Assembly (NCBI GenBank): GCA_947630065.1
Contig: CANRGE010000001.1
Span: 18,840-82,839, forward strand
Direction of reading: 5' to 3'
From: an uncultured Clostridia bacterium
GTDB lineage: Bacteria; Bacillota; Clostridia; TANB77; CAG-508
Length of the DNA: 64,000 bases
The notes beneath the pieces are model-generated. The model saw only the letters and a program-made list of their open reading frames with translations, was not told where the DNA came from and made no database searches. Shown here one piece after another: positions 4,543 through 25,176 of the stretch (its first letter is position 1; the number at the start of each line of letters is the position of its first letter). A program made the translations under genes and the position numbers.

Positions 4543-6225
4543 TTAACTAATTGACTACTCTGTAGTAGTCAAACCTAACATTACTTTATTTTCAAGATAA
4601 TAATTACTATTACTTACGGTATCACTATAACTTGAAATTCCCTCAAATTCTTCAACTAATTGTTTATTATCATTGTCGAGGTCTTTATATTGTTTTGTAC
4701 CATAATCGTCAGGGAGGAAGCCCTTTTTACGTCCTGCAAAAATGTTCCATTTCTTTAGCAAATCTTCATTAGTAAACCATATGTGAATAGTACCTTTTTT
4801 CATAAATTTTGCATCAAAAAATGCTCCATGAACTTTTTCACCGTCATAACCATTTCTACTTATATTCCTTAATATTGTACCAATAGTTTCTCCTTCTCTA
4901 TAACCACCATTAAGATAAGTTAAGACTTTTTCAATTTCATCAAGCATATCAGTTGCTTTATACAAGCTCCAACCAAATACATTTTCATAGATTCCATAAC
5001 AAGGAATTATGATTTTCTTATTTATCTTATATGCTTTATTAGTACACCACGAATTATAATAATGTATATTTCCAGATTTCATCTGACTATGTTCGTAAGT
5101 AAGTTTATCAAACTGCTCCATAATAGCTACTTCCAAATTACTATTTATAGATTCTACCAAATATATTTGCATAGTCTTTATGTTGTCTAAATTAAAATCA
5201 TAATTTCTTAATTTTTCCATGTTTCTTTGAAAATATGCACGCGTATTTTCTGTTAAATATTTAGAAACATCATCACTCTTAAAGAAAATATTCCAATATT
5301 TAGCACGTAATTCTCTAAGATAAAGATTTTGAATAGAATAGTTACTTGAATTTTCTTTTGTTAGAACTGTCATGTTTATAAGTGGCGATTCACTATGTGA
5401 CGAGCGCGGCAAAATATTTACAAATCTATTATAATTATCAAGCAAACTCAATCCTATTGTACATTCTTTATTATATTGGTCTAATATAATTTTTATAACA
5501 TCATTAACGGCAAGCTGATAATTGTTAGTCATACTTTCATATTGACTTTTATACTCTTGTGCTCTATGCATTTTAGAAAAAACATCAAAATCATATTGAA
5601 TCATAGGAATATCAACATAGATTAAAGCAATTTCAACTTTAGTGGTTCTTTCACTATCAACAAAAGTATCTGATAAAAACCCTATATCAGCTCTATATTC
5701 ATTTAATTTCTTTACAAGCTCTTTCCTTAATATACTATAAGGATTCTTTATAGTTTCAGCATTTAATATACAAACTATTTGTCCACCTGTGCGACAAAGG
5801 TTTAATGCTTTCATTAAATGCTTATCACCCTCTGAAAAAGGAGGATTCATAGCTATCAAATCATAACGAGTATAAGTATTCCACTCTAAAAAATCAGCAA
5901 CATTAACACTATAGTTATTATCTCTTAATATTGCCGCAAGGTTAGGGTCTATTTCAACACAATCTATAAATTTTATTTTTGATTTAACTTTTTGCAAAAT
6001 TTCTTTTTTTTCTGACTCTGTTATAGTTCTATCTAAATCTAATTTTTCAATCTTTTTTTGTTTCTTATCAAGCTCATTCTGATACAGATATTTATAAATT
6101 CCATCAATTATATCACCCTTGCCCGCAGATGGTTCGAGCATTGAATTAACTTTAGTCCAATCAACTTTTGCCGCCATTTTCATACTAAGACTTTCAGGTG
6201 TCGGATAAAATTGTATTCCAAACAT
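4543..6225 (-). CDS. N6-adenine DNA methyltransferase-like protein with long C-terminal domain
   Basis: Motif I LEPSAGKGDII and motif IV LIAMNPPF. The track ORF ends at TAG 4555. Read-through adds 4 codons (Q-S-I-S) to TAA 4543. Confidence 0.75.
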
Positions 6226-6260
6226 ATTAAACCTCCAAAAGCATTTTATTCTTTATATAT

Positions 6261-6289
6261 ATTATATCAAAAAAAAGTAGAAGAATCAA
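6261..6289 (-). promoter_or_regulatory. sigma70-type promoter, family copy 3
   Basis: Minus strand: TTGATT, 17 nt, TGaTATAAT. The -35 lies inside the inverted repeat gtagaagaatca/tgattcttctac. Confidence 0.6.
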
Positions 6290-6322
6290 ATATTTTTATG
6301 ATTCTTCTACTTCTCACTTTAC

Positions 6323-6820
6323 TTAATAAAAATAACAGTCACTACAATCTTTAACTTTTCCATCTTTTGAAAAAGTCCAACATTTTTGATTTAAACTTCC
6401 TCTTAATTGTGGTGTTTGTACATGAAGATTTTTATTGTATTTTCCATCAATTAAGAAATCTATACATTGTCTTTCCTTTTCGTTTAATTCTAATTGTGCT
6501 AATGTGAATCCTGTGTATACTACAATTTTTATATGGGGTAAATCATTACGAATCTTTTTAAGTAAGTTAAAAGAACTATTACGATTTTTTTCTGATAATG
6601 GTTCACCACCAAGTAATACAAAATAACCAATATGTGGCTTTTTTAAGCTATCACATATCACTTTATAAGTGTTATCTGTAAACTCTTTGCCGCAATTATA
6701 ATCCCATAATTCAGGATTAAAACAACCATCACATTTATTATCACAGCCACAAACCCATAAGGTTGTAGAATATCCATGACAATTTCCAGTATCATATGTA
6801 ATAATTTTGGAATATCTCAT
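6323..6820 (-). CDS. nrdG: anaerobic ribonucleotide reductase activating protein (radical SAM)
   Basis: CGCDNKCDGC (CxxxCxxC) and GGEPL motifs. Lies directly downstream of nrdD. Preferred ATG at 6820 after GGTGAG. Confidence 0.85.
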   Translation of the reverse strand: MRYSKIITYDTGNCHGYSTTLWVCGCDNKCDGCFNPELWDYNCGKEFTDNTYKVICDSLKKPHIGYFVLLGGEPLSEKNRNSSFNLLKKIRNDLPHIKIVVYTGFTLAQLELNEKERQCIDFLIDGKYNKNLHVQTPQLRGSLNQKCWTFSKDGKVKDCSDCYFY

Positions 6821-6824
6821 TTTT

Positions 6825-7412
6825 TTACTCACCAATTTCTAAGCCTGTGTGCTTAACTCTTTCTTCAACTTCAGCTTGTTTGCCTTCGTTGAAAGCAGTT
6901 TTATAATCTCCTGTTAAATCATTTTTATAATGGACTATTTCTTGCTCCGTAGAGCGTGTGTGTTTAGTCTCTGCATTTAGATAAGTGATATCATACATCA
7001 AAATCTTTTTTCTCTTTGCTTTTAAACGACTTCTTGCCGCCTCAAAAGTAAGAATTGTTGTTTGAGATATGTGCCGCGCCGCAGCAGCATAACTTTCAAA
7101 ATAAATATTATTAAGTAAGACTGGTTTCTTTTGACCTATATAGCGTAAATTTCTATAATCGTTATTATAAATGTTGCCATCAATATGACTAAGCTTTTTG
7201 TTCTGTAAATACTCACCTAACCAACATTCAGCAACAATTTTATCAATCATTATTTTTTTAGATTTTATAAAGCCAACATAACCATTTTCTTCTAACTTAA
7301 TTTTAATTTGTTTTTTTGATTTTACGTTTCTTAAAATTGTTCCATTCTCATTAACTTCATATAAAAATTTTAATGATTTCACTTTTCTAAACTCAAGGTT
7401 TGAATTATTCAT
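6825..7412 (-). CDS. HNH homing endonuclease encoded in nrdD intron 5, reading in frame into exon 6
   Basis: FLYEVNENGTILRNV (NUMOD4-like) and HIDGNIYNNDYRNL (HNH) motifs. GGAGG RBS. The last roughly 31 codons are the nrdD C-terminus, with a shared TAA. Confidence 0.7.
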   Translation of the reverse strand: MNNSNLEFRKVKSLKFLYEVNENGTILRNVKSKKQIKIKLEENGYVGFIKSKKIMIDKIVAECWLGEYLQNKKLSHIDGNIYNNDYRNLRYIGQKKPVLLNNIYFESYAAAARHISQTTILTFEAARSRLKAKRKKILMYDITYLNAETKHTRSTEQEIVHYKNDLTGDYKTAFNEGKQAEVEERVKHTGLEIGE

Positions 7413-10400
7413 CTCTTGATACCTCCATAGTCATTTTTTTATTTCTGTACCTTAATAGGACACCAACTATGGAAACTTCTTTTAAAAGAATTTACACAAC
7501 TTTAGGGGCATTTCTTTAGGAGATATTAGATAACCCCGTCACTCTTCTTAATCTCTTTATATTATTGCCGCCACATTGTGGACAAGCTGCAATAATTTCT
7601 CCCGTATATCCACAATCATCACATAAGTCATTCGGCACGTTTATAGCAAAATAAGGAATATCCTTATCCATTGCATAATTAACAATTTCTTCCAATGCGT
7701 TTATATTGTTTTGAAGATTGGTGTCCATTTCTACATAAGTTATACAGCCTGCTGAACTATAACCTGTGAGCTGACTTTCTATGTCAATTTTAGTGAAAAG
7801 GTCTACCTTTTCCCACACAGGAACGTGCATAGAATTTGTGAAATATTTATGGTCACTTACATTAGGAATTTCACCGTATTTTTTCTTAAATTGTTTCATT
7901 GCTGTAAAACAAAGATTTTCTGCCATTTATACCCTCGGTTTCCCGATATTTCTTAGGGGATTAGACTATATTTTCATCTAATATTCCCATTAGCGAAATA
8001 TTAGAGCCTTATCTTTCGCCGCAAGGCTACTCTACTCATTTATTCACATAAGAATTTCTCTCATGTTATACTTTCGATAGTCGTTAGAGAACAATGTTGT
8101 CCTACGGGATTAGCTTGCCATTTAGGTTTAGCCTTTCTTACCAACTTATTACGTTTGCCCGTTTAATAAGGTTTGTCATTATAGTTACCTATAAAGCTCC
8201 CAACAATTTTTAGGAGTATAATAAACACCAAAATTCAGCTTATATTCATTCTTAAATTGTGTACATCTATCTTTAAATAATTGTTCAATTCTTTTTGCTA
8301 AAACCATTCCTTTTTCATGAGCTTGATTAGTTTCGATAAGAATTTCAAGAGTTTCAGCAAGACCTAATTGCATTTATACCCTCGGTTTCCCGATATTTCT
8401 TAGGGGATTAGACTATACCATAGATTAACTAATCTCAACCATTATAGTCGTTGAAGCTTCTTCTCAAAGAGAAGTTTGCCTGCGTTTGATTGTCCAATCT
8501 TTGATGATTTTACCATACTGTTTCCGTTACTAAACACCACAGTAGCGTCACCGCGACTGCTTGGTTATCAAAGCTCTAAGGAGTTCCCCGCAATTTCGGT
8601 TGTTTAAAGTGAGCCAATTTTTTAACCCACCGCAAGTGTACCATGAATAAGAGCTGACCTAATTCCTTGTTCTGGTATGTAACCTGCCATTAAGCCATTC
8701 TCATACATAAATCTTGCACTTTCCATAGGTTGAGAGCATATCCACTCAAACCTTTCAATCAACATATCTTTTGCTTCATGAATTTTTTTATCAAGTAGCT
8801 CCATAAAATCTTCTACTAAATTATTAGAACCACTTTCTTTTACTTCCATGGCTAAAGTTGGTAATATAATGGTTACTGGACAAATGTTTCCTCGTCCATC
8901 TTTAAGTTGTCCTAAACCATTTATATCCCAGCCATTAGCTGTTCTACACGTGTTTATCTTATGTCACCATAAGCACTGACTATATGTTCTCTTACTAAAT
9001 AAGAGCCTCCCGCTTGGGGTTAGTGCCTATCTCTAACCCTACTCTGCTACACTCATCACAGATAGTCGATACATTTTATTTTTCATAATACTAAGAAATT
9101 TTTTTAAGAATATTACAAAAAATCTTAACACGGTCTCAGCTTTACTTAATAAAGTCCTAACCGTTAGCCTGTTTATACAGACACCCGTTGGCACGGTTCA
9201 AGAGGTTTTAAATGGGCTAAGTTTACGCCTACCCATTGTACTAAATTCTGTTTTAGGGTCGTCTGGGTCATACCCAGCATTACCTGTCCAATCTACATTA
9301 GCATAATTGGGATATAATCTCAAAGCCGTAGATTTTAAGGCTAATTTAAATAAATCATAATTTGGGTCGCCCTCATTACGATTGATTCCTTTTTTACACT
9401 TAAAAATGCCACAAGGAAAAATACTTGTTTTATGAAATTTCCCTACACCATTTATTGAACCCTCTATTAAAGATTTGATTACCATACGTCCTTCAAGAAG
9501 TGTGCAAGTTCCATAGTTAATTGAGGTGAACGGTCGGTTATGTTATCGTAAAGGCTTTTTATCCTTTACTTCTTATAGTTTCCTATAAGCCCAGCATACA
9601 TTTTCATCTTCGTCATTACACGTTAAGAGTCGAACACTCGTGGGTAGATTATATTTATTCACTACCTATGCGTTACGGTGTCTTTTAGCCTTTCGCTATC
9701 TAAAAGATTACCTCGGTGTTATCATATTTTAACAAAAATTGTGATATTGTAAAAAATTATTATATATATCTTTTTTACGAGTAAGATAAATTGTTGAATC
9801 ATTATATATCCAATCCCCTAAAATTTTCATATCTTTAGTACTTGCAACTTTTATTTCACTTAAATGTCTATCTTTATAATCACGAATTTTTGGTTGATGG
9901 CTTAATTGTAATTGTTCATATATATATCTTGCTATATCGTCCATTAGTTGATGAGTGCCACAAAAATGAATATATTGATAATAACGTCTATTATACTATT
10001 TTGCTGCTATACTTCCATCGCCATCAAATATTCCACGAATAAGATGAGACATTAAATTATCATCTATTTTTGGCAAATAAGTATGTAAAGTTTTTCGTGA
10101 GATTACACCGTATTTTTCAAGGTCTTTTGCCATAACATTACTGCGTACTGCAATTGTTTCACAACCTCGTCCATCGCAGTTTACAGAGGTATTTGCTTGC
10201 AAAACTTCTTTAAATTTTTCAAGCATATATCTATCTTTTTGCTATAAAGTAATAGATATAGATGCTTGCCTTCTACTATTTCTGTCTATAAAAACATTAC
10301 CATCTGTAATTAACAACCCTAAAAAATAAGCGGCAATTTCATTATCTATTGTTTGAAAAAAATGTTCTTTTAGGTTAGGATTATATAATTTTGCTTTAGG

Positions 10401-12973
10401 ATATTTAGGTATATTTGCAAGAATTTTTGTTATTGTTGGACTACATAAATTATATTTATCTGCTACTTGTTTTATTGTCATAGGTTGAGATAAATAATAT
10501 TTTATAATTTCTTGCTTTAATTCTTCTGTTATAATTTTACTTGGCATTATTCATCTCCTTTAAAATATTTTTGTTAAAACTTAGACTTTCACCGATTTTG
10601 CTCGATTTTTTCTAAAAAATTTCTTTTTTAGACAACCATACATTTTAGCTGATTTCCAGAGCGGCTTTGTAGAGAATTTAGGTTGTGATACATTCCTTCA
10701 ACTGCTTGGTCTAATTCCTTTTGTGTCATATCAAGTGCATATTGATAACTTCCTTTGTCATCATAAATATAAGTATCTGATATACTGTATTTGTCAGAGT
10801 CTTCTTTTGAAATACTAATTTCCTTTTTATCTTTCGCTATATATTTTAGCCCATCACAATAGTGCTTATAGAATGATTTTCTTACATAAGGAATCATTGT
10901 CCAATCTAAATGAGTAGCTGAAACTCCACCAAACTGATTTAACGATTGTAATTGAAAAATTACTGCTATTAGTTGAAAAGCCGTTTCGATACTATTAGCT
11001 GGACGTATATCTGTTTGACGTGTGTTAAATCCCTTAGCCAGCAAATCATCGAACGGGACAGATAAACAATTGTGTGATACATAATTATTTACAATAAACC
11101 AGTGTGATAATGTTTCTAAATCATATACATCTTCTTTTAAAGGCTCTGTTGTAATTGATATAATTTTTGTTTCATTAAAATTATTACTAATACCCATATA
11201 AGCATAAGAATCATTATATTTGAATGTATTTAATTCAGATTGTAAATTATAAACATCATCAGTTCGACCCACTGTTAAATTGAAACAATCATAATTTCTT
11301 GTTCCTGTTTTTCCTCTAATTTGATAGGTACTACCTTTTTTATTTATCAATGTTATGTGAGAAACATAGCCTAATTCCTTTAACATCATTGCTAATTGTT
11401 GCAAATAAGATTCACAGCAAGAAGTATAAGTTATTCCTCTACTTGTTACACTACCATCAGTATCTATACAAGCTGATAAATAAGCTAATTTTATTTTCTT
11501 ATTACCATTTAATACAAAATTAGGAACTGATATATCTCCTGCACCATTCTTCTTTGCTCCTGCAAAATTCTTAAATAATTTTACAATTATTCTTGAATCA
11601 TCTGTTACACGTATACAAGGTGAAGTGTGCCATTCTTTTGCATAAGATTTATTAAGATGCTTACCAAAAACAGCCTCATAACATTTTACAAAATCATCTA
11701 TTAGTTCTTCATTTATATTAGTAAATGTTAGAGAAAAAGTACTACTCTTTTCATTAATATATACACCACCATCTGCATATATATAGGCATATATTTTTGC
11801 AAGCTCAGGAGAATAAGGTATATATAATGGATATTCATTTTTACTACCACAGCTTTTAATTTTCAAAGAAGAAATAACATCAAAAGACAACGGATATTCT
11901 TTTGTAATTTTCTTAAAATCATTTAATTTTAATGTCAATGATGATGGCGGCAATTCAAAATTATGTTCTTTTGCAAAATCTGAAAATACTATATTATATT
12001 TAAATCTCAAATAATGTCTTAACACAGATAAGTTAGTAATTCTCAAATCTATTTGTTCATCATTTAATTGAGTTAAATCCAAAAAGCTACTCGCTATCTC
12101 TTCCTCTGATAAAGTTAAATTTTCTATATCTAAAAGACAATCACCTTTTTTTAGGTCTTTTACTTCTTTTAGCACTTCTTTACCATTCTCTATTATAGGT
12201 AATCTATGCTCACCAGTTAATTTTATTGGTATTCCAGAACGAGTTTTGATTGTATACAATAGTTCTTTGTCTTTCGGCGACCTTTTTGTAATAGATATTA
12301 GTTTTGTCCAGCCATCACGTGATAAAATAGAATAATTATCATTTTCGATAATAGCTATTTGATTTGTTTTAAGTAAAAACCTGTTTGCCAAATCCTCAAT
12401 TTTTATTGTTTCTATTTCATTATTATGTTTAACTTTAATAAATGATTTTCCTATAGTACAATTGTGTGAACCTATAGCATAACTATCTAAGTCATGAATG
12501 TAAATCTCATTATTTATATGATTATTTTTAGACATTTCTGACATACAGTTATCTAACGCATATTGTTTAAGAACCGTATTATTAACAGCTCCAACTCGTC
12601 CTCCAAAAGACCTTTCATCAACATTAGCGTTCTGATTTTCTACAATTTTTGCACCAATTTTATCACTAATTTCTTTCATAAGTTTAGAATTAGATTCTCT
12701 AACTCTTGTTCTATCATTACGATAGATGATAAAAGCTTTAGCAATATCCTTTCTATTACTTTGCATTAGCTTTTTTTCAATTAAATTTTGAATTTCTTCA
12801 ACTTCAATATTTGTTTCTTTTTTATTTTTTATTTCTGCTGCAATTTTTTCAGCAAGCTCTAAAGTTTTCTTATCCAAAATGGTATCAACAGCTAATGTCG
12901 CTTTGTTAATTGATGAGATAATTTTCTTTTCATCAAAAGCAACCTATCTACCATCTCTTTTAATTACATACAT
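6825..12973 (-). CDS. nrdD: anaerobic ribonucleoside-triphosphate reductase, split into 6 exons by 5 group I introns and carrying an intein
   Basis: Exons: 12973-10647 (intein 12460-11069), 9534-9231, 8948-8625, 8370-8212, 7923-7533, 6919-6825. Joining restores VIKRDGR(TAG)VAFD, IHDLDSYAIGSHN|CLSVPFDDLL, SGNQL|PFTSINYGT, STMG|CRTANGW, TLAVG|QLGLAETL, GVYYTP|AENLCF and RRVTG|YLTGDYKTAFNEGKQAEVEERVKH. Segment lengths sum to a whole number of codons (about 735 aa). Confidence 0.85.
6920..7532 (-). mobile_element. group I intron 5 of nrdD (613 nt, HNH ORF)
   Basis: The 5' exon ends ...ACGGGGT and the intron ends ...AAAAATG (terminal G). Splicing gives GGG T|AT TTA, which is G-Y-L of the glycyl-radical motif. 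Confidence 0.7.
7924..8211 (-). mobile_element. group I intron 4 of nrdD (288 nt, no ORF)
   Basis: The exon ends ...TATACTCCT and the intron ends ...GGGTATAAATG. The junction restores YYTP|AENL. GC-rich structured interior containing CGACTAT. Confidence 0.7.
8371..8624 (-). mobile_element. group I intron 3 of nrdD (254 nt, no ORF)
   Basis: The exon ends ...GCGGTGGGT and the intron ends ...GGGTATAAATG. Its last 47 nt are identical to intron 4. Confidence 0.7.
8949..9230 (-). mobile_element. group I intron 2 of nrdD (282 nt, no ORF)
   Basis: The exon ends ...ACAATGGGT and the intron ends ...AAACACG. The junction restores MG|CR at the active-site Cys. Confidence 0.7.
9535..10646 (-). mobile_element. 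group I intron 1 of nrdD (1112 nt, LAGLIDADG ORF)
   Basis: The exon ends ...AATCAGCT and the intron ends ...CATAACCG. CT|A CCG TTC restores SGNQL-PFTS. Confidence 0.75.
9729..10547 (-). CDS. LAGLIDADG homing endonuclease (double motif), 2 in-frame TAG
   Basis: Track ORFs 10242-10547, 9996-10226 and 9729-9944 share one frame and are separated only by TAGs at 10242 and 9996. Motifs YFLGLLITDGNV and LIRGIFDGDGSI. True stop is TAA at 9729. Confidence 0.8.
11069..12460 (-). mobile_element. intein (464 aa) with LAGLIDADG endonuclease domain in NrdD
   Basis: Begins C-TIGKSF after ...GSHN and ends ...VYDLETLSHWFIVNNYVSHN, followed by +1 Cys (CLSVPFDD). Block B is LTGEHRL. Endonuclease motifs IYAYIYADGGVY and LSACIDTDGSV. 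Confidence 0.85.
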
Positions 12974-24957: not shown

Positions 24958-25102
24958 ACCTTACTTCATGAAGTATTTTTCATATTAGAAAATTTAATTA
25001 TAATAAAACAATAAACACAAGCGTTCCAACAATTTGTTTTATCAATTTAACTTTACTATTTACTTTTAAAGGTAAGCTGAAAGTTATTAAAGCTGACCCA
25101 AG

Positions 25103-25176
25103 TTACGGTGGAAGGATTTGAACCTTCGGAGTGACGGAGTTAGAGTCCGCTGCCTTACCCGCTTGGCTACACCGTA
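25103..25176 (-). tRNA. suppressor tRNA, anticodon CUA (reads UAG), tRNA-Gln-like body
   Basis: TACGGTG TA GCCAAGCGGGTAAGGC A GCGGA CTCTAAC TCCGT CACTCC GAAGGTTCAAATCCTTC CACCGTA A. The anticodon is at 25141-25143. U1-A72, the D arm and the anticodon-stem GGA/TCC core match the tRNA-Gln(UUG) at 30050-30121. Confidence 0.85.

Follow-up and report, generated by a model that had tools for sequence, protein, structure and literature searches.

A class III ribonucleotide reductase (RNR) gene, nrdD, lies on the minus strand of the 64,000-nucleotide (nt) stretch of contig CANRGE010000001.1 that was analysed here (the whole stretch is hereafter called the window) and is interrupted by six elements: five intervening sequences with features of group I introns (I1 to I5) and one in-frame intein. 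The strongly favoured reading is that five group I introns and a LAGLIDADG intein have colonised an expressible, intact nrdD, and that this gene belongs to an uncultured gut phage in which TAG encodes Gln. The anatomy of the gene, the precision of its junctions, the covarying pairings of the ribozyme cores and the presence or absence of insertions among relatives are shown; RNA splicing, protein splicing and endonuclease activity are inferred from sequence. The locus cleanly exemplifies a phenomenon already known, probably as an extreme case, and does not represent a new kind of system or mechanism. The coordinates of all features are given in Table 1.

Table 1. Features of the interrupted nrdD gene and associated genes in the window
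Feature	Coordinates	Strand	Characteristics
Whole nrdD	12973-6825	minus	ATG at 12973, TAA stop at 6827-6825; 6 exons, 5 introns, 1 intein
Exon 1	12973-10647	minus	ATP-cone domain and N-terminal NrdD core; includes the intein coding sequence; ends in ...SGNQ-CT↓
In-frame TAG, nrdD codon 10	12946-12944	minus	VIKRDGR-TAG-VAF
Intein	11069-12460	minus	464 aa; boundaries GSHN↓C...VSHN↓C
Intron 1 (putative group I)	10646-9535	minus	1112 nt; P1 CAGCU/GGUUG
Putative LAGLIDADG homing-endonuclease ORF in I1	9729-10547	minus	272 aa; in-frame TAG at codons 102 and 184; TAA end
In-frame TAGs in the I1 ORF	10242-10244, 9996-9998	minus	Codons 102 and 184
Exon 2	9534-9231	minus	LPFTSINYG...EFSTMG
Intron 2 (putative group I, IA-like)	9230-8949	minus	282 nt; P1 AAUGGGU/GCCCAUU; no ORF
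Exon 3	8948-8625	minus	CRTANGW...HGTLAVG; first codon is the Cys290 equivalent
Intron 3 (putative group I)	8624-8371	minus	254 nt; canonical P/Q/R/S; P1 GGUGGGU/GCUCACU; no ORF
Exon 4	8370-8212	minus	159 nt; QLGLAETL...GVYYTP
Intron 4 (putative group I)	8211-7924	minus	288 nt; P1 CUCCU/GGGAG; no ORF
Exon 5	7923-7533	minus	AENLCF...zinc ribbon CxxC...CxxC...RRVTG and first base of the Tyr codon
Intron 5 (putative group I)	7532-6920	minus	613 nt; P1 GGGGU/GCCCC; P3 UGUGU/ACACA
Putative HNH-type endonuclease ORF of I5	6920-7412	minus	164 intronic codons; continues in frame into exon 6
Exon 6	6919-6825	minus	(Y)LTGDYKTAFNEGKQAEVEERVKHTGLEIGE, then stop
nrdG (activating radical-SAM enzyme)	6323-6820	minus	Directly downstream of nrdD; Fer4_12, E=3e-33; intact
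tRNA, anticodon CUA (amber suppressor)	25102-25176	minus	Would be needed to translate nrdD codon 10 and the I1 ORF
Coordinates are positions in the window. ↓, insertion or splice point; aa, amino acids; ORF, open reading frame.

Exon junctions and the NrdD product

When the five intervening sequences are removed, the six exons total 3600 nt, a multiple of 3, and contain neither a frameshift nor a TAA or TGA stop. Their translation, from an ATG preceded by the Shine-Dalgarno motif GGGAGG, gives a 1199-aa precursor, and removal of the 464-aa intein leaves a 735-aa NrdD. This product aligns end to end with TIGR02487 (1-581/581, 467.6 bits; cutoff 326.35), a comparison that had been named beforehand as a check. 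It also matches PF13597 (2-562/562) and an ATP-cone domain (1-87/88), aligns with residues 9-741 of NrdD from Prevotella copri (PDB 8p23), and scores 645.9 bits with NF005497, under the cutoff of 764. No gap is found at any of the six junctions in the NrdD alignments. The RVTGY glycyl-radical motif, the equivalents of Cys79 and Cys290 and the CDDC...CPQC zinc ribbon are all aligned. In the numbering of phage T4 NrdD, the intein is located directly before Cys79, I2 between Gly289 and Cys290, and I5 between Gly580 and Tyr581.

The initial annotation of this DNA had proposed the five intervening sequences and the intein, with a T at each 5′ exon end, a G at each intron end, a summed exon length divisible by 3, conserved NrdD motifs recreated at the junctions, and insertions at conserved sites (GSHN↓C, MG↓CR and RVxG↓Y). 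Coordinates and lengths were reproduced exactly, the terminal bases are as described in all five cases, the gap-free alignment to TIGR02487 and 8p23 bears out the recreated motifs, and the three sites are those mapped above to T4 residues. The assembly of the reading frame was likewise exact; the same annotation was silent on the need to read TAG as sense at codon 10.

The state of the exons bears on the possibility that this nrdD is a dead relic, broken by mobile elements or endonuclease genes and no longer spliced to a functional mRNA. Some split phage RNR genes are seen as degenerating by Dwivedi et al. (PMC3653736), and Rfam scores under the gathering score, a decaying endonuclease in I5 and three introns devoid of any ORF would agree with such a fate. 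Against it stand the 3600 nt of exon sequence free of frameshifts and TAA/TGA stops, the conservation of all catalytic residues, an intact nrdG (called as a 165-aa gene in assembly L088), ribozyme cores that retain pairing through compensatory changes, and the recurrence of the identical nrdD structure in several independent assemblies. A relic is therefore considered very improbable.

A second alternative is separate translation of the fragments into polypeptides that associate non-covalently, as for NrdA of Aeromonas phage Aeh1, with no RNA splicing. Separate ORFs are indeed predicted by gene callers for exons 2-5, and both I3 and I4 end in a Shine-Dalgarno-like motif and an ATG positioned precisely where the exon begins. 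Independent starts would, however, lie 17 codons into exon 2 and 33 codons into exon 3, with loss of LPFTSINYG and of the Cys290 equivalent; exon 6 lacks its own start codon; breaks fall within catalytic motifs (G↓C, G↓Y); and the intervening RNAs keep group I cores. Separate translation is thus given hardly any credence, and splicing of the six exons into one frame is preferred. The 5′-exon frames that enter the introns encounter TAA or TGA, never TAG, within 0-10 codons. Translational bypassing was ruled out, the gaps being far too long. Group II introns were also ruled out: no reverse transcriptase ORF and no GUGYG...AY boundary were found, and I2-I4 measure only 254-288 nt.

Group I features of the five introns

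The assignment of the five intervening sequences to group I introns, as first proposed, is supported by a P1 helix with a U•G pair, a terminal G, and core pairings with covariation or a match to the Rfam model RF00028. The P1 helix (5-7 base pairs [bp]; 7 bp in two introns) is closed by the splice-site U•G at 5/5 junctions; at random T positions, helices of at least 5 bp are found in 17% of cases and of at least 7 bp in 3%. A terminal guanosine (omega-G) ends 5/5 introns, at junctions fixed by the protein alignment. The core elements (P3/P7 pseudoknot, P4-P6, P8, R/S) were identified through an explicit pseudoknot in I1 and I5, by individual pairs in I2 and by RF00028 in I3 and I4; the assignment of P4-P6 in I2 and I5 is uncertain.

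Over the whole window at the gathering threshold, and over 6.9 kb at E<=10, Rfam returned no group I match. After narrowing of the search to 1.4 kb, RF00028 matched I2, I3 and I4 (model 1-253); the earlier miss on long stretches is due to the filter and to a search-space effect. The Rfam check suggested with the initial annotation thus had a mixed outcome: full-length sub-threshold matches were obtained for I2-I4, none for I1 and I5, and nothing at the gathering score. This score (50 bits) is an annotation cutoff and not a mechanistic criterion. I1 and I5 are missed because their endonuclease ORFs (~820 and ~490 nt) split their cores; since Rfam is blind to them, comparative analysis was used, and both were rescued. 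A related sixth intron, in the nrdD of metagenome contig L093, reaches 66.3 bits with RF00028, over the gathering score.

In I1, the 5′ strands of P3 and P4 are located upstream of the ORF, the ORF lies in the P5 loop, and the last ~190 nt hold P4′, P6, P7, P7.1, P3′, P8, P7′, P9 and P9.1. This ~190-nt 3′ module is kept in 96 phage records, and a short I1 segment was the sole match when the whole region was compared with phages by megablast. In six relatives of the module that were fetched, it lies within a gap in gene annotation and is not annotated as an intron. Its flanks are coding sequence (CDS) halves or parts of one gene (DNA polymerase, terminase, helicase) in 3/6 of them, and it directly follows a LAGLIDADG, HNH or unannotated ORF in 4/6. 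Gaps next to tail and head-tail genes also hold it, and the fetched records (L002-L007) belong to Leptolyngbya, Clostridioides, Staphylococcus and crAss-like phages.

Among seven members of the I1 module, RNAalifold found compensatory changes in 27/40 pairs. P4 covaries across the ORF (UCGGUG/CACCGA, UCGGUA/UACCGA, ACGGGA/UCCCGU), as does P3 (UCGAG/UUCGA, UCGGG/UCCGA, CCCAG/CUGGG, UUGAG/UUCAA). An explicit structure comprising P3, P4, P6, P7, P7.1, P9, P9.1 and the P3/P7 pseudoknot was tested on ORF-deleted sequences: 97.1% of cells are paired vs 33-43% with slid partners, 28/46 pairs show compensatory (double) changes, and 0/500 shuffles reach any of the observed measures. The predicted LAGLIDADG ORF of I1 is intact. 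It matches PF14528 with 37.6 bits (cutoff 22.5), and passes this cutoff only when both TAGs are read as sense; it is also called at 272 aa in an ENA assembly (L089).

The layout of I2 is, as judged from its predicted pairings, that of subgroup IA, with R (AUCGACUAUC), S (ACAUAUAGUCAG), P7.1, P7.2, P8 and P9. Distant blastn searches with I2 and with I5 gave no match in phages; orthologues of both were recovered from metagenome contigs by way of the exon-5 protein. The I2 orthologue of L093 (72% identical; RF00028, 20.9 bits) shares P1 (7 bp), P3, P7.1, P7.2, P8 and P9, with 11 compensatory pairs.

The 3′ half of I3 matches 333 phage records, and orthologues of I4 are found in L093, L094 and L097. 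The 3′ ends of I3 (8371-8417) and I4 (7924-7970) are 100% identical over 47 nt and their 5′ parts differ, which points to a recent event of recombination or gene conversion involving both introns. Both introns end in GAGGGTATAAATG, in which the G of the ATG is the terminal G of the intron. Exon 4, located between I3 and I4, is in frame, so that its skipping or deletion would preserve the reading frame.

I5 was compared with orthologues from metagenome contigs L093-L096. Two covarying hairpin domains precede its ORF; R (GCAGAGACUA), P8 (GCUC-UACG-GAGC) and S (AAGAAAUAGUCC) are inside the 3′ end of the ORF. P7 covaries from GACUA/UAGUC to GACUG/CAGUC and P8 from GCUC-UACG-GAGC to ACUC-UACG-GAGU, four pair types of P3 occur across orthologues, and the guide sequence tracks the synonymous third base of the exon Thr codon (GGGGU/GCCCC, AGGGU/GCCCU, CGGGU/GCCCG). 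In the I5 structure, 94.2% of cells are paired vs 31-41% in slid controls; 8/24 pairs are compensatory (P3, P6-like, P7, P8), and 0/500 shuffles reach the observed covariation score. A 5′-proximal GACUA was rejected as the P7 strand: its G is not retained in L093, and the segment takes part in a local helix of 7 bp. The compensatory changes that keep the pairs of the ribozyme cores indicate purifying selection on RNA structure.

The ORF of I5 has probably been decaying: aligned pairwise with the HNH_3-positive orthologue of L093, it lacks 40 residues, including the region after NLRY. Both in the window and in L093 (3933-4640), this ORF has no stop of its own and shares the stop of nrdD through exon 6.

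Several observations weigh against a gene with five group I introns that all splice. None of the five reaches the gathering score of RF00028: I3 scores 35.3 bits (E=5.4e-7), I4 25 bits (E=6.7e-4) and I2 17.5 bits (E=0.11, full length), and the 3′ core of I1 alone and I5 alone give no match at all. The P4-P6 region of I2 is folded by RNAalifold into three serial hairpins and not into a textbook P4/P5/P6. The ORF of I5 is inserted between a closed P6-like helix and P7, an unusual position, and the closing helix has no covariation support; this ORF scores 16.2 bits with HNH_3, below the Pfam cutoff of 24.8, so that its HNH membership falls short by that measure. Splicing in this genome is itself inferred.

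Some of these points would be expected if most of the elements were group I introns and at least one, most likely I2 or I5, were impaired in splicing or dependent on a protein or trans factor, nrdD expression then being conditional or inefficient. I2 has the lowest Rfam score and a non-canonical P4-P6; in I5 the position of the ORF is atypical and only ~12 nt follow P7′. Relatives with an otherwise intact nrdD nevertheless conserve both introns, with compensatory changes, and both keep P1 and the terminal G. Such an impairment is regarded as unlikely, and five introns able to splice remain the preferred reading.

The intein, the reading of TAG and the proposed expression pathway

The sixth insertion is, by its sequence features, a canonical LAGLIDADG intein of class 1, which would splice autocatalytically. 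These features are Cys1 (CTIGKS...), block B (LTGEHRL), a C-terminal His-Asn (...YVSHN↓C), a +1 Cys that is the equivalent of T4 Cys79, and two LAGLIDADG motifs (YAYIYADGG and LSACIDTDGS). The comparison with intein models agrees with the intein originally proposed: PF14890 (Intein_splicing) matches with 55.1 bits (cutoff 35.8), PF14528 (LAGLIDADG_3) with 48.4 bits (cutoff 22.5), and intein-containing NCBIfam models also match; the nearest solved structure is PI-PkoII. After removal of the intein, IHDLDSYAIGSHN↓CLSVPFDDLL aligns with no gap to 8p23 and to T4 NrdD. Full-length homologues with 31-32% identity occupy the same nrdD site in Aeromonas phage vB_AceP_PAc and Fusobacterium phage phiKSUM.

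In this phage, TAG appears to be decoded as Gln. The tRNA with anticodon CUA is much closer to the phage's own tRNA-Gln than to its tRNA-Glu or tRNA-Lys, and in the relative L093 a TAG (~2081-2083) is found at the invariant Gln of SGNQLPF. When TAG is taken as sense, the stop-to-stop frames in the window that span 100 codons or more rise in total from 13,918 to 19,988 aa. Gene calls that read through the TAGs of this locus already exist in one ENA assembly of the same phage. The nrdD frame stays open only with TAG taken as sense, and the CUA tRNA would be needed both for codon 10 and for the endonuclease ORF of I1.

Expression of the gene could proceed as follows. The nrdD-nrdG region would be transcribed, each intron would form its group I core, an exogenous G would attack at the P1 U•G pair, and the freed 3′-OH of the exon would attack after the terminal G, joining the six exons into the 3600-nt ORF. 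Decoding of codon 10 by the CUA suppressor tRNA would then allow synthesis of the 1199-aa precursor. Self-excision of the intein (Cys1, His-Asn, +1 Cys) would recreate the Cys79-equivalent region and yield the 735-aa NrdD, to be activated by NrdG at the glycine of RVTGY. The elements may have arrived and may persist through homing, promoted by the LAGLIDADG ORF of I1, the decaying HNH ORF of I5 and the LAGLIDADG domain of the intein. The most conserved codons are where the insertions cluster, presumably because homing endonucleases target conserved DNA.

Occupied and empty sites in relatives, and comparison with known systems

The sites are polymorphic for presence and absence: relatives carry 0, 1, 2 or 4 introns at the same or adjacent positions. 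An uninterrupted nrdD (64-71% identity) is found in 80 IMG/VR viral loci. The nearest cultured nrdD, that of Thomasclavelia phage TR-TP1, has one intron (AT↓G), and that of L096 has two. L093 has four, at HNL↓N, G↓C, TP↓AE and G↓Y, and lacks the intein; L094 also has four, at SG↓NQ, AT↓G, TP↓AE and G↓Y. The clade as a whole shows at least 8 intron positions and one intein site, 5 and 1 of which are occupied in the window copy. Of 1,940 homologues of exon 5, the best 120 database matches to its ORF are all 133-238 aa long, and many come from contigs that measure 20-157 kb, so that a split at site 4 is a common occurrence.

The introns of TR-TP1 and L094 near the I2 site were rejected as occupants of that exact site, being 4 nt upstream, and the I1-type intron of L094 at SG↓NQ lies upstream of the window's I1 site by 8 nt. 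Staggered introns, related or unrelated, are thus seen around the same motifs (TR-TP1, L001, 2121-2997; L094, ~5724-6569 and ~5047-5398). The intron of TR-TP1 at AT↓G contains an HNH.

The author of the initial annotation was not aware of any described nrdD so crowded. The implied unusual crowding was overstated, since multiply interrupted nrdD and other RNR genes have been published and metagenome relatives carry up to four introns. The nrdD (sunY) of T4 has one group I intron with I-TevII (PMC2988022, PMC1865063). It shares with the present locus the host gene, the intron class and a homing-endonuclease ORF within the intron, and differs in having a single intron and no intein; here five introns are at other sites, an intein is added, and the endonucleases belong to LAGLIDADG and HNH families.

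In jumbo gut (Jug) phages, according to PMC12880540, group I introns and intein-domain insertions break up nrdD in 95/104 genomes, as many as four pieces being shown, and metatranscriptomes (RNA-seq) support splicing. The genomes of Jug phages measure 360-402 kb and follow the standard code, and their hosts are Bacteroides or Phocaeicola, whereas TAG is recoded here and the contig is ~153 kb; the six interruptions of this nrdD exceed those shown for Jug phage nrdD. Zeta and Delta crAss-like phages, one of whose major capsid protein genes is in five fragments and whose genomes hold up to 14 introns and 3 inteins (PMC7886860), likewise combine dense group I introns and inteins with stop recoding by a suppressor tRNA. 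They differ in lineage and host gene; here, six elements are in one gene and none was detected elsewhere in the 64-kb window.

Among phage RNR genes, nrdD is the most often split (PMC3653736). The same source reports three introns and an intein in nrdE of Brochothrix phage A9, two introns in that of Staphylococcus phage Twort, and an intron and an intein in that of SPbeta. In these genes, too, which encode RNR large subunits of Firmicute phages, group I introns and/or an intein lie close to catalytic residues, but the genes are class Ib nrdE with fewer elements, and the present gene is a class III nrdD. The nrdJ gene of Trichodesmium erythraeum, as reported from Liu, Yang and Meng (2003) by PMC4143802, is a single RNR gene crowded by seven selfish insertions, four of them inteins and the other three group II introns; it differs in belonging to a cellular genome and, by that account, in having no group I introns. 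Further parallels come from cultured phages with fewer insertions: phiKSUM and vB_AceP_PAc share the homologous intein, which precedes the Cys79 equivalent at the same position, the nrdD of phiKSUM is annotated in three CDS pieces, and TR-TP1 has its HNH-containing intron 4 nt from the I2 site.

It is possible, if on balance doubtful, that the gene holds the record number of self-splicing elements for one phage protein-coding gene (5 group I introns and 1 intein), in a clade-wide hotspot on catalytic residues and with an I1 endonuclease adapted to the recoded code. Were this the case, expression of the I1 endonuclease, and hence mobility of the intron, would depend on the amber-suppressor tRNA of the phage. 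The locus provides an example of an intron endonuclease ORF bearing recoded stop codons and extends the known build-up of homing elements on RNR catalytic codons. The orthologous series with 0, 1, 2, 4 and 5 introns is usable for the study of intron gain and loss and of splicing by closely spaced tandem ribozymes. The locus can also serve as a test case for annotation: standard pipelines give nine or ten separate ORFs here and default Rfam gives no intron.

Elsewhere in the 64-kb window, a regular-expression scan for R and S elements of other introns gave only weak candidates, the best one without Rfam support. Two pairs of R-like and S-like hexamers (24083/24296 and 5092/5176, both minus strand), one inside a DUF4942 ORF and the other near the tRNA cluster, are probably chance matches. 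Directly downstream of nrdG, a 556-aa ORF (4555-6225, minus strand) has a Pfam match to DUF4942 and what may be a methyltransferase-like N-terminus.

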